Below, one piece after another: positions 24,929-27,158 of a stretch of 64,000 nt of DNA (position 1 is the first letter of the stretch; every line of letters begins with the position of its first letter). The position numbers were made by a program, and so were the translations under genes. This DNA is from a phage, in sequence record NC_101837.1. One strand, written 5' to 3'. A model generated the notes under the pieces. It was given only the letters and a program-made list of their open reading frames with translations, was not told the origin of the DNA and did not search any database.

Positions 24929-26476
24929 TTAGATAAAACGCTTGAACATAGAAGGTGATGAGATTGATGGAATCACACAAGGAAGTGCTACCTCCTCTTT
25001 CTCCAGGAAATTAATCGCAGAAGCTACGCAGTCGGCCCAGTCGTCTTTTCTGTTAAATGTTGATCTTTCCCCGTTGAATTTTTCAAGTTCAGTCAGAAAT
25101 GCTTCCAGAGTATCAGGATGGAAACTGGATTTTACAATCCTCACCATTCCTTGTTGGGCAAGATTGGCAAAAGGTGAGAACCTTGTCAGTTTAGACTTGT
25201 TGGAAGGCATTGGGTCTTCTTCAACCCTGAACCCTTCGGCAAGCAAGGATCTGGAGGAGGTTAAGAACTCACTCTTACCTGCCTGCCCTGGGTCCACAGA
25301 GAAGACGATTATGCAATCATCACCATCGAACTGCGCCTGTTTCCTGATGATCACATCTCGTTCACCAGCCTTTTTACAGAACTTGCCTTCCAGACCTGTG
25401 GAATATCTCCCGTCATCCACGTTCTCAGGACAATAATCGCCGGACAGGTAATAAAAGCCGTCGCTATCTTTACTTACCTTAATACTGGCAGTAAAGTCAG
25501 GAAATTTATTACCGGAAGTTCTCTCGGTTCCTGCCTTATCCCATGCCCTGCAAGATACTGATCCAAGAGGTACTCTATCGGCATCACGAAGGAAAGATCT
25601 TTGAAAATAGTTTGCACCCTCAGGCTTTGCAAACCAGTTACCATGGAGAAGCTGAGCTTTTTCCAGCTCTGGTAGACCTTCGAGGAAAGCAAGGTATTCT
25701 GGGTTGTCTCTCAAACAGACAGGATTATCGAATATTGTTGCGCCTATGAACGAGAATGACAACGGTCTTGGCTTGATCTCTACACCAAGTCCGTTAACCG
25801 TGGTGTATTTCTCTATCAACTCTTCTTTAGAATCTCCCCAGATAAATTCACCGTCGCGTCGGATAAAATATCTTTTCTTACCGCATTTCTCCGGATCTGG
25901 ATACCCTTCATCGTCCAACCACCATCTAACCAGTTTGGCAAGCATGTGTTCTGAATCGGGGTTACAGCTGATAACCATTCTTGATGGATACTTTGACTGA
26001 GATCGCAGACGAGACATCAGGTAGTCTATCTGCTCCCATTCGAACTGCGTGCCCTCATCGAAGCAAACCATGGTGTACTCAAGCCCCTGATGGTTAAGCT
26101 TATCTTGTACATACTCCATATGGCAGTATTTTACAACAGCTCCCTTTTTGCTTCTATCCCACTTACCAGTGTTCGGATCAAACCGTGGAAAAATGAACTT
26201 ATGATCCTTCTCTCTGAACTTTGGCTTAATGTTTTCAGGCAGATCACTATAAATAGCTACTGCTTTAGGCCATAGTCCACCCTCACCTTCCAACTGTGGG
26301 GTTGTTCTTCGGAACATAACCACAGAGCTGTGGGGGTCATCAATAATTTTAAGTGGCATCAACTGCAAGAGGAACGACTTGCCAGACCCTGCTGCACCGC
26401 CGATTACCAAGATATCTGCATCGTTTTCGAGGATCATCTTCTGCTTTTCAGAACACGGTCCGTAAATCTTAGACAT
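24929..26476 (-). CDS. terminase large subunit
   Basis: 515 aa; Walker A VIGGAAGSGKSF near N-terminus; C-terminal nuclease-sized domain. Confidence 0.8.
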   Translation of the reverse strand: MSKIYGPCSEKQKMILENDADILVIGGAAGSGKSFLLQLMPLKIIDDPHSSVVMFRRTTPQLEGEGGLWPKAVAIYSDLPENIKPKFREKDHKFIFPRFDPNTGKWDRSKKGAVVKYCHMEYVQDKLNHQGLEYTMVCFDEGTQFEWEQIDYLMSRLRSQSKYPSRMVISCNPDSEHMLAKLVRWWLDDEGYPDPEKCGKKRYFIRRDGEFIWGDSKEELIEKYTTVNGLGVEIKPRPLSFSFIGATIFDNPVCLRDNPEYLAFLEGLPELEKAQLLHGNWFAKPEGANYFQRSFLRDADRVPLGSVSCRAWDKAGTERTSGNKFPDFTASIKVSKDSDGFYYLSGDYCPENVDDGRYSTGLEGKFCKKAGERDVIIRKQAQFDGDDCIIVFSVDPGQAGKSEFLTSSRSLLAEGFRVEEDPMPSNKSKLTRFSPFANLAQQGMVRIVKSSFHPDTLEAFLTELEKFNGERSTFNRKDDWADCVASAINFLEKEEVALPCVIPSISSPSMFKRFI

Positions 26477-26763
26477 TAACCTCTCTCCTTTGGAAACAGT
26501 GTTCTAATATAGTCTTGCAAAATGATCAATTTAGCTCTATCATTGCTACAAGACAGATTATTATCCCTCATAATGCCAGAATTCACTGCATCTGGCGCAC
26601 CTTTCTTCAAAGGCATAGCTTTAGCAGGTGGTTTCATGGCACCTTCCGGGGGTTTAACAATCAACCTTCCTACATCCGGAGGGTCAATCTTGTATTCTCT
26701 CTCAACGCTGGTTGCACACCCACATAATAACAAGCACGCAATAAACAGTGTGGCAACTCTCAT
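26476..26763 (-). CDS. o-spanin-like outer-membrane lipoprotein
   Basis: 95 aa; signal peptide with lipobox-like LLLCGCATS, Pro-rich; start overlaps stop of 26760..27158. Confidence 0.55.
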   Translation of the reverse strand: MRVATLFIACLLLCGCATSVEREYKIDPPDVGRLIVKPPEGAMKPPAKAMPLKKGAPDAVNSGIMRDNNLSCSNDRAKLIILQDYIRTLFPKERG

Positions 26764-27158
26764 CGATCCTCCTGATTGATACTCTCATTATAAATATCTA
26801 TAAGCTGATCAGGAAGTGTTGACTTCTTACCTTCAGGTGATTGGAGGTAGATAATCTGCTTTTCTCTACCTGCCCTCTCAGCTATATTTAATTTATCCTG
26901 TAGATCAGAAAGGGATTTTTCAAGGTTTTTAACCTCCTCTGCGTGGCCCATTTTAATTTTGTCGGCCTGCTTTTGTTGCTGATCAAGGATCCGTTCCCAC
27001 TTCAACTCTGTTGCTAACACACCTTCTTGGTAGGCTTCATTAAGCTTAGAGTTAAACCAATACACGGCCCCAAGATAAGCTGTACCTATAGCCGCTGCAA
27101 AAACTAAACCTTTTATGATCCCTCTATACCTACTCAGCCATGTTAAACCTGAAATCAT
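26760..27158 (-). CDS. i-spanin-like protein
   Basis: 132 aa; N-terminal transmembrane helix (LVFAAAIGTAYLGAVYWF) then coiled-coil; 4-nt overlap with o-spanin gene. Confidence 0.55.
   Translation of the reverse strand: MISGLTWLSRYRGIIKGLVFAAAIGTAYLGAVYWFNSKLNEAYQEGVLATELKWERILDQQQKQADKIKMGHAEEVKNLEKSLSDLQDKLNIAERAGREKQIIYLQSPEGKKSTLPDQLIDIYNESINQEDR

Follow-up and report, generated by a model that had tools for sequence, protein, structure and literature searches.

Gene context of the putative spanin pair

Two small overlapping genes, flanked in a coliphage by a tRNA cluster on one side and the large terminase gene on the other and located far from the endolysin gene, raise the question of whether they encode a spanin, as an earlier note on this DNA had proposed, or proteins with another role. 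The DNA analysed here, a stretch of 64,000 nucleotides from sequence record NC_101837.1 (the window), comes from an rV5-like coliphage of the genus Vequintavirus and has ~99% identity to many GenBank genomes. We consider, with a probability of roughly 0.9, that the pair codes for this phage's two-component spanin. The reading is supported by topology signals, gene order, PHROG spanin families and conservation across relatives; each of these sequence-level tests bears it out, and it agrees with both annotation and literature.

Both ORFs are found on the minus strand, exactly where they had been placed: the i-spanin gene (26760..27158) encodes 132 aa and the o-spanin gene (26476..26763) 95 aa, each from an ATG start, and they overlap by 4 nt, sharing the letters ATGA. 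The ORFs, the tRNA predictions and the PHROG match of the terminase likewise bear out the proposed position of the pair between the tRNA cluster and the large terminase gene. The terminase gene (TerL; 24929..26476, minus strand) encodes 515 aa without interruption and matches phrog_979 (3e-208), Terminase_6N and Terminase_6C. Upstream of the pair and on the same strand, ARAGORN located the tRNA cluster (27580..28392), containing Pro, Met, Thr, an odd 99-nt tRNA-like gene, Ser, Tyr and Arg in an order identical to that annotated in isim and rV5, and a single 89-aa ORF (27264..27533) separates this cluster from the spanin pair.

Topology and conservation of the two proteins

Inspection of the i-spanin by a hydropathy scan revealed one hydrophobic segment, residues 14-32, with a mean Kyte-Doolittle value of 1.80 and with the positive charges R10, R12 and K16 on its N-terminal side, the pattern of a single N-terminal transmembrane helix in the N-in/C-out orientation. 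The rV5 counterpart, ORF67, was scored as having '1 TMD' by TMHMM and Phobius (rV5 Table S3), and the i-spanin is predicted to be a type II inner-membrane protein with its membrane helix at about residues 14-33. An AlphaFold model, built from the single sequence, is helical from residue 5 to 103 and again, after a linker of low confidence, in a short stretch at 115-127, with a mean pLDDT of 76, and in a crude heptad scan the fraction of hydrophobic a/d positions over residues 62-110 was 0.62-0.75; model and scan together describe a periplasmic domain that is mainly alpha-helical or coiled coil. The membrane helix of the earlier note, and a long helix compatible with its coiled coil, were thus recovered. 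The short C-terminal helix carries a DIYNES motif that is invariant in an alignment of four genera, and the protein contains no Cys. It is a full-length match to phrog_4297, 'Rz-like spanin' (1.1e-47), while a PDB sequence search returned chance coiled-coil matches alone (E > 0.1).

The o-spanin begins with the lipobox LFIACLLLCGC, in which Cys16 fits the PROSITE-type lipoprotein pattern, and both features by which the pair was to be checked, a transmembrane helix and a lipobox, are present. Vequintavirus, Seunavirus, Henunavirus and Mydovirus all have the same residues at L13, G15 and the putative lipidation site C16, and the signal peptidase II lipobox pattern fits the proteins of all four genera. 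The lipoprotein is predicted to be lipidated at Cys16 and, because residue +2 is Ala and not Asp (with Thr at +3), to be sorted to the outer membrane. Proline makes up 11% of the mature protein, whose N-terminal half is proline-rich and whose C-terminal segment is conserved. The o-spanin matches phrog_1267, also labelled 'Rz-like spanin' (1.8e-22). These PHROG labels rest on the same sequence logic as our own reading. Scans of both proteins against Pfam and NCBIfam returned nothing above noise, and hence the pair is not related in sequence to lambda Rz/Rz1.

Of 528 spanin systems, 507 have one or more periplasmic Cys with which homotypic disulfide-linked dimers could form (Kongari 2018, PMC6139136), and a homotypic disulfide is needed in both spanins so far tested, those of lambda and T4. 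The sole periplasmic Cys of the o-spanin, C72, is kept within Vequintavirus, and its position is occupied by Ala or Gly in PVP-SE1, Hena1 and KpS11, whose spanins would, judged from the alignment, fall among the ~4% of systems that have no periplasmic Cys.

Gene junctions and expression signals

The i-spanin gene's stop codon and the start codon of the o-spanin gene meet in the ATGA junction (26760..26763, minus strand), and an AGGAGG Shine-Dalgarno sequence lies within the 3' end of the i-spanin gene, ahead of the o-spanin start; together they suggest translational coupling of the o-spanin to the i-spanin. The 4-nt overlap is kept in all relatives examined, among them Aya, HMD-6, PVP-SE1, Hena1 and KpS11. 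At the other end, the ATG of TerL overlaps the o-spanin stop codon in the sequence TAATG, a junction kept in the relatives Aya and HMD-6. Comparison with two Vequintavirus relatives gave pN/pS values of 0.15-0.24 for the i-spanin and 0.09 for the o-spanin, and this purifying selection together with the conservation of both junctions argues that the two are not chance ORFs.

Directly upstream of the pair, RNA folding revealed a terminator-like hairpin (27171..27208, minus strand) of 11 pairs with one bulge and a 4-nt loop, followed by UUUUUU. The fold has an energy of -21.1 kcal/mol over a 76-nt stretch (z = -1.97), it is kept in two relatives, and it ends a few nucleotides ahead of the GGAG ribosome-binding site of the i-spanin gene (27166..27169). 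The bulged hairpin escaped a simple terminator scan and was found by eye and folding. A motif resembling the rV5 late promoter, TGGTAAAATA, has 20 matches on the minus strand of the structural block against 5.6 expected, and is absent between the tRNAs and the i-spanin start, including the interval between hairpin and start codon. The hairpin with no such motif after it, the loss of C72 in the other three genera and the want of Pfam and NCBIfam matches all count against the spanin reading.

Comparison with described spanin systems

Neither the spanin pair nor its site beside the terminase gene is new, and the observation made in the earlier note is correct but ordinary. Labels of i-spanin/o-spanin or Rz-like spanin are carried by dozens of GenBank and RefSeq records, gp66/gp65 were named as spanins in the announcement of LL12, and the rv5 spanin families were catalogued by Kongari 2018 (PMC6139136). 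The dispersal of the lysis genes is a real layout that had been published before, by Buttimer 2020 (PMC7344957), in which the spanins of rV5, PVP-SE1 and CB7 were reported to adjoin the large terminase gene, outside a lysis cassette. Our search of the literature found no experimental test of any rV5-family spanin.

The closest counterparts are rV5 gp067/gp068 (ORF66/ORF67) and their Vequintavirus orthologues in Murica, LL12, isim and the BASEL phages, which are the same proteins at 91-100% identity, with the same junctions and the same order of tRNAs, i-spanin, o-spanin and TerL. TerL is uninterrupted here, whereas introns or an HNH gene interrupt it in rV5 and some others; otherwise nothing substantial differs. 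Synteny reaches further, the order of tRNAs, i-spanin, o-spanin, TerL and portal being the same in four genera of the Vequintavirinae. The PVP-SE1 spanins share 29% (i-spanin) and 37% (o-spanin) identity with the pair, but the overlap of the o-spanin gene with TerL is missing from PVP-SE1, Hena1 and KpS11, where the i-spanin gene is instead overlapped by the gene upstream. Spanin genes beside the large terminase gene and outside a lysis cassette, as here, are also found in the Certrevirus CB7, PVP-SE1, SP6 and VP4 (Buttimer 2020, PMC7344957).

Two other systems resemble the pair in architecture without detectable sequence kinship. The lambda Rz1 gene is fully embedded in Rz, within the S-R-Rz cassette, whereas the genes described here overlap by 4 nt alone and lie 10 kb from the endolysin gene. 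Lambda Rz/Rz1 nevertheless belong to the same class and have the same topology, a type II inner-membrane protein whose periplasmic domain is helical and a small proline-rich outer-membrane lipoprotein, and their endolysin partner, lambda R, is of the same type, although no Pfam-level sequence relationship links them to our pair. T4 PseT.3/PseT.2 are, like the pair here, separate non-embedded genes unlinked to the holin and endolysin genes, and the T4 i-spanin likewise has no Cys and consists of two helices with a linker; the published family tables place rv5 in one section with T4, KP27 and VP4 (Kongari 2018, PMC6139136). The T4 spanins fall into different PHROGs, however, and no sequence similarity to them was detected. 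The o-spanin here has a single Cys, not kept across genera, against the two conserved ones that the T4 protein needs, and it also differs from that protein in its proline-rich N-terminal half.

Alternative roles for the pair

T5 Llp and Cor-type lipoproteins are precedents for small phage lipoproteins in superinfection exclusion or receptor masking, and the pair could be an unrelated membrane protein and lipoprotein of this kind, spanin-like in topology alone. Spanin function is so far a prediction for these proteins, neither of which matches a Pfam or NCBIfam family, the pair is far from the endolysin gene, and its periplasmic Cys is not kept outside Vequintavirus. We nevertheless regard such a role as improbable: a type II helix with a helical domain, followed by an overlapping gene for a proline-rich outer-membrane lipoprotein, is the defining signature of a spanin, the pair is conserved together in four genera, and no further spanin candidate was seen in the 64-kb window. 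Distance from the other lysis genes is shared with the spanins of T4, SP6 and VP4.

It is less probable still that the genes upstream of TerL encode packaging proteins, such as a small-terminase-like protein, or virion proteins. They do occupy the usual place of a small terminase, just upstream of TerL, to which they are translationally coupled, but a cytoplasmic DNA-binding small terminase could have neither a membrane anchor nor a lipoprotein signal, neither protein has a terminase match in PHROGs or Pfam, and ~90-100 nt separate the pair from TerL in PVP-SE1, Hena1 and KpS11. Had they been virion components the spanin proposal would have been in difficulty; in rV5 Table S3, neither ORF66 nor ORF67 carries the label 'MS evidence' that marks detection by virion mass spectrometry. 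In light of the PHROG matches, hydropathy and this table, the small terminase and virion assignments were dropped.

The endolysin and the candidate holins

A two-component spanin would act together with an endolysin and a holin. As the earlier note had it, a lambda-R-type endolysin is encoded about 10 kb away on the opposite strand (37218..37706, plus strand), 10,060 nt from the spanin pair and within a divergent plus-strand gene block that starts at ~32403. It has the lytic transglycosylase fold, matching 1AM7, the phage lambda lysozyme (E = 2.9e-49), and phrog_90 (3e-52); 1AM7 and 3D3D both align at ~3e-49 over residues 4-160, including the N-terminal catalytic region SEGTDNGRQ. Oddly, no family was returned for it by a Pfam scan at E <= 1, and an NCBIfam scan likewise found nothing above noise. 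The maximum hydropathy of the protein is 0.34, with no hydrophobic segment and neither a secretion signal nor a SAR segment, and the endolysin, being soluble, should therefore need a hole-forming holin.

One candidate for this holin is encoded at 61285..61512 (plus strand), a 75-aa protein with membrane segments at residues 3-21 and 40-58 and a charged C-terminal tail, DYYKNIRKESRDGDRT, which gives it the form of a class II holin: small, with two transmembrane helices and a charged tail. The earlier note had offered it as a holin candidate, and it proved to be the homologue, at 88.5% identity, of the rV5 gene at 94058..94294 (ORF 129), listed as 'Putative holin, 2 TMD' in rV5 Table S3 (2013); the literature goes no further than 'putative'. 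Its assignment as the holin is reasonable but unproven, and there is a sizeable chance, although below even, that ORF129 and its homologue here are not holins and that some other protein serves as the holin in rV5-like phages, perhaps one of an unrecognised type or one encoded outside the window, which holds less than half of the genome. Pfam, NCBIfam and PHROGs contain no described holin family that matches it, its one PHROG, phrog_10061, having no assigned function; its gene, 23.6 kb downstream of that for the endolysin, is surrounded by genes of no assigned function and adjoins neither the endolysin nor the spanin genes. The topology is ambiguous because the K/R residues are split between the inter-helix loop (4) and the tails (5), and the authors of LL12 and KPP-1 failed to identify a holin. 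On the other hand, no other small protein of the window has two membrane segments, TMHMM and Phobius likewise single out its counterpart as the only such protein in rV5, the C-terminal tail is charged, and the loop and second helix are strongly conserved whereas the remainder is variable.

A second small protein had been named as a holin or lysis-regulator candidate, that encoded at 38451..38657 (plus strand; 68 aa, phrog_4641, no assigned function). An HNH homing-endonuclease gene (37684..38382, plus strand; phrog_99) lies between it and the endolysin gene, but is missing from ~100 of 120 relatives, where the span in the records is 1215 nt and not 1914 nt, and the layout of JES2013 is likewise; the HNH gene is thus an insertion here, and in most relatives the gene for the small protein directly follows the endolysin gene, which it still adjoins in rearranged relatives. 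The earlier statement that no holin adjoins either the endolysin or the spanin genes holds accordingly for recognised holin families, but not in full for this small protein, split from the endolysin by the HNH gene alone.

In the 68-aa protein, the hydrophobic N-terminus differs from relative to relative and has an AxA-type site (VFA|G) at its end, and in the alignment the 46 residues after that site are nearly invariant, with two invariant Cys. This pattern fits a cleaved signal peptide followed by a periplasmic domain, and the protein looks like a secreted periplasmic mini-protein; its model (pLDDT 81.6) is a beta-rich domain of four strands. A role as holin is unlikely, since the hydrophobic N-terminus is the variable part, and a lipoprotein was ruled out, Cys14 and Cys17 not being conserved. 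The lysis-regulator half of the proposal is possible because linkage to the endolysin gene persists. Foldseek found no informative counterpart of the model in PDB or BFVD, both small membrane proteins were without matches above noise in Pfam and NCBIfam, and an IMG/VR search for distant relatives of both holin candidates found one or two Vequintavirus-like contigs only. A search of 5.8 billion proteins with the 68-aa protein returned 11 clusters, unnamed bar one 'hypothetical protein', and those whose contigs were examined have Vequintavirus-like gene contexts.

Proposed lysis pathway and significance

We propose that the i-spanin would be anchored in the inner membrane by its one N-terminal helix, with its long alpha-helical domain spanning into the periplasm, and that the o-spanin would start out as a prolipoprotein, acquire its lipid at Cys16 and move to the outer membrane. 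Analogy with lambda Rz/Rz1 and T4 PseT.3/PseT.2 suggests that the two bind through their C-terminal parts and so reach across the periplasm, passing through the mesh of the peptidoglycan. The soluble endolysin would gain access to the wall by way of a holin, for which the protein with two membrane segments at 61285..61512 is the candidate, and once the wall is degraded the freed spanin complexes would fuse the inner and outer membranes as the final step of lysis. The spanin genes open the late head and packaging block and, being coupled to each other through ATGA and to TerL through TAATG, are proposed to be made late with the packaging proteins, whereas the divergent plus-strand block encodes the endolysin and the putative holin. 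The analysis itself shows the ORFs with their junctions and synteny, the membrane and lipoprotein signals, the helical model, the family matches and the purifying selection; that the proteins form a complex and fuse membranes, when they are expressed, and which protein is the holin are what we infer in this scheme.

The spanin finding itself matters little beyond correct annotation. Since rV5-like phages are used in biocontrol and in phage-therapy cocktails, a full account of their lysis genes is useful, and the analysis leaves modest, testable questions: the identity of the rV5-like holin, for which there is a guess from 2013, and the role of the 68-aa protein that travels with the endolysin gene, a linkage that is the only small new lead of this work. 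We think it unlikely, but worth stating, that the 68-aa protein is a new periplasmic lysis accessory, acting as an antiholin-like receiver of signals or as a modulator of the lambda-R-type endolysin; if this were true, the holin of these widely used therapeutic phages would still await correct identification.

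Results

Phage identity and the spanin gene pair

In a nucleotide search, many complete rV5-like coliphage genomes, among them PMBT16, A6-1, inoa, isim and rV5 (genus Vequintavirus, subfamily Vequintavirinae), matched region 24900..28500 at 98.7-99.8% identity, and the spanin findings are therefore directly comparable with these relatives and with the literature on the group. The E. coli rV5-like phages are also matched, at up to 99.8% identity, by about 18-19 unannotated GenBank records with the title 'Campylobacter phage' (MG0656xx) and C. jejuni given as host; probably these host labels are wrong or the stocks were contaminated.

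The earlier note had described an overlapping minus-strand spanin pair at 26476-27158, between a tRNA cluster and the large terminase gene (TerL), and this description holds in each of its parts. The ORF list contains an i-spanin gene (26760..27158, minus strand, 132 aa) and an o-spanin gene (26476..26763, minus strand, 95 aa) that share the 4 nt ATGA. The tRNA cluster was located by ARAGORN at 27580..28392 (minus strand), an 89-aa ORF of the function-unassigned phrog_8729 (27264..27533) lies between it and the pair, and the spanin genes head the late packaging and head block. The i-spanin has one hydrophobic segment by hydropathy (residues 14-32), on whose N-terminal side lie R10, R12 and K16, its single-sequence AlphaFold model is an unbroken helix over residues 5-103 followed by a linker of low confidence and another helix (115-127), and a crude heptad count over residues 62-110 is compatible with a coiled coil, in agreement with the claimed transmembrane helix and coiled coil. 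The o-spanin signal LFIACLLLCGC matches the bacterial lipoprotein pattern at Cys16, with Ala at +2, as expected of the claimed lipoprotein; the mature protein is 11% proline.

Two observations concern the neighbouring genes. The TerL gene (24929..26476, minus strand, 515 aa) is uninterrupted here; in rV5 it consists of three joined pieces and contains an HNH gene, and HMD-6, inoa and nomo have a split gene as well. Within the tRNA cluster, ARAGORN reports a 99-nt tRNA-like gene (27825..27923, minus strand) with an undetermined 4-base anticodon, atcc, which relatives label tRNA-OTHER or tRNA-TERM and which is absent from the rV5 annotation.

In comparisons with Aya and HMD-6, two Vequintavirus relatives, non-synonymous changes are far fewer than synonymous ones in both spanin genes (pN/pS 0.15-0.24 for the i-spanin and 0.09 for the o-spanin), and both junctions of the pair and the internal Shine-Dalgarno sequences are kept. 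The tblastn searches matched 192 phage records with the i-spanin and 145 with the o-spanin. Salmonella phage PVP-SE1 (Seunavirus), Erwinia phage Hena1 (Henunavirus) and Klebsiella phage KpS11 (Mydovirus) encode spanins 25-43% identical to those here, and all have their genes arranged as tRNAs, i-spanin, 4-nt overlap, o-spanin, TerL, portal. Across the four genera neither the lipobox residues L13, G15 and C16 nor the DIYNES motif at the i-spanin C-terminus varies. Purifying selection, the breadth of the matches and synteny in divergent genera argue that this ORF pair is more than chance.

Both proteins match PHROGs families labelled 'Rz-like spanin' (i-spanin, phrog_4297, 1.1e-47; o-spanin, phrog_1267, 1.8e-22) and neither gave a match in Pfam and NCBIfam scans, which places the pair in the spanin functional class and not among the sequence relatives of lambda Rz/Rz1. 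The same gene pair in RefSeq rV5 (gp068/gp067), and its counterparts in Murica, LL12, isim, the BASEL phages and many others, carry i-spanin/o-spanin or Rz-like spanin labels, and Kongari et al. 2018 (PMC6139136) tabulated an rv5 i-spanin group and a seven-member rv5 o-spanin family alongside T4, KP27 and VP4. That the spanins of rV5, PVP-SE1 and CB7 adjoin the large terminase and are not part of a lysis cassette was already stated by Buttimer et al. 2020 (PMC7344957), who noted a similar arrangement in SP6 and VP4. The alternative that the proteins are virion components is not supported: the rV5 gene table flags virion proteins with 'MS evidence', and neither ORF66 (unlabelled) nor ORF67 ('membrane protein, 1 TMD') has this flag.

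Endolysin and holin candidates

The endolysin (37218..37706, plus strand) is a lambda R homologue, as had been proposed, matching 1AM7 at E = 3e-49 with the catalytic SEGTD region aligned. Our Pfam scan gave no family at E <= 1, whereas the rV5 paper (PMC3606486) reported pfam00959. Since hydropathy reveals no hydrophobic segment, the enzyme would need a canonical holin and not a SAR/pinholin route. With spanins beside the terminase and the endolysin elsewhere, the lysis functions are dispersed, as claimed and as already published.

Two small genes had been listed as membrane-protein candidates for the holin or a lysis regulator. Among the window's small proteins, the 75-aa product of 61285..61512 (plus strand) alone has two membrane segments. 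Its identity with the rV5 gene at 94058..94294 is 88.5%; that gene, 'ORF 129', was put forward as the rV5 holin by Kropinski et al. 2013 (PMC3606486), so that the nomination in the earlier note is a rediscovery. The 75-aa protein matched no holin family in PHROG, Pfam or NCBIfam. Its family is confined to Vequintavirus (55-100% identity), its loop and second helix strongly conserved and its tail variable in the alignment. Later authors did not adopt the assignment, and the LL12 genome announcement, which lists endolysin gp90, i-spanin gp66 and o-spanin gp65, states that a holin could not be identified. The pair, its terminase-side position, the dispersed layout and the ORF129 holin guess are thus all already published.

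The earlier listing of small membrane proteins was incomplete. A 39-aa single-TMD protein (61626..61745, plus strand; rV5 ORF131, 'membrane protein') is encoded by the second gene after that of the putative holin, immediately upstream of 61914..62384, which corresponds to rV5 ORF133, a virion protein that is abundant and has a TMD at its C-terminus; together these form a small membrane-protein cluster.

The second candidate, the 68-aa product of 38451..38657 (plus strand), fared differently. Among nine aligned family members the hydrophobic N-terminus is variable and terminates at a site of AxA type (VFA|G, AWS|G), and the 46 residues that follow are nearly invariant, with two invariant cysteines; the protein therefore looks like a mini-protein that is secreted and not embedded in the membrane, its Sec signal peptide cleaved off and its periplasmic domain disulfide-bonded, a reading that is new. 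This pattern speaks against a holin, and a lipoprotein was rejected because neither Cys14 nor Cys17 is conserved. The model is a small four-stranded sheet (pLDDT 81.6), for which Foldseek searches of PDB and BFVD gave no informative structural neighbours.

Judged by comparison among relatives, the HNH gene at 37684..38382 is a recent insertion between the endolysin and 68-aa genes, which is a new observation; of 120 Vequintavirus records about 100 lack it, and there 63 nt separate the 68-aa gene from the endolysin gene upstream. In metagenomic relatives that are more distant (identity 72% for the endolysin and 63% for the 68-aa protein) the flanks are rearranged, with an exonuclease and a phosphoesterase upstream in place of DNA ligase, and the two genes keep their spacing. 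By this comparison, which included loci L007 (1501..2241) and L013 (2965..3704), the two genes are conserved as a unit, also a new observation, and because of this linkage a lysis- or lysozyme-related role for the 68-aa protein is a reasonable guess, no more.

Discussion

By analogy with lambda and T4, whose systems PMC6139136 summarises, the i-spanin would be a type II inner-membrane protein and the o-spanin an outer-membrane lipoprotein, whose periplasmic C-terminal parts would bind each other, giving a complex that spans the periplasm, threaded through the peptidoglycan. The holin would permeabilise the inner membrane and the endolysin remove the wall, whereupon the freed complexes would fuse inner and outer membranes. 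The pair would thus work like lambda Rz/Rz1 and T4 PseT.3/PseT.2, but is not a sequence member of either family.

The cysteines differ from those systems. Homotypic disulfides are needed in both spanins tested so far, and a periplasmic cysteine is missing in only about 4% of catalogued spanin systems (PMC6139136). Here the i-spanin has no cysteine, and the sole periplasmic cysteine of the pair, C72 of the o-spanin, is kept within Vequintavirus and replaced by Ala or Gly in the Seunavirus, Henunavirus and Mydovirus proteins (L004, L005, L006), so that the spanins of those three genera would be without any. As read from the alignments, this pattern is a deviation from the tested models, and the new element is that this o-spanin cysteine is confined to the genus Vequintavirus.

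The gene arrangement suggests that the genes for i-spanin and o-spanin are translationally coupled and that, in Vequintavirus only, coupling extends to TerL. A few nucleotides separate the i-spanin ribosome-binding site from a conserved terminator-like hairpin with a U-tract upstream of it (27171..27208, minus strand), which the rV5 record does not annotate and which bears on how the message for spanins and terminase is produced. Kropinski et al. 2013 (PMC3606486) reported a late-promoter-like motif for rV5, TGGTAAAATA; it is enriched here, with 20 occurrences at one mismatch allowed where 5.6 were expected, most of them on the minus strand of the structural block (1026..24905), and no copy lies in the interval from the tRNAs to the i-spanin start. 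Given the hairpin upstream and no such motif near that start, expression of the pair probably depends on read-through that begins at upstream promoters, or on a promoter that went unrecognised.
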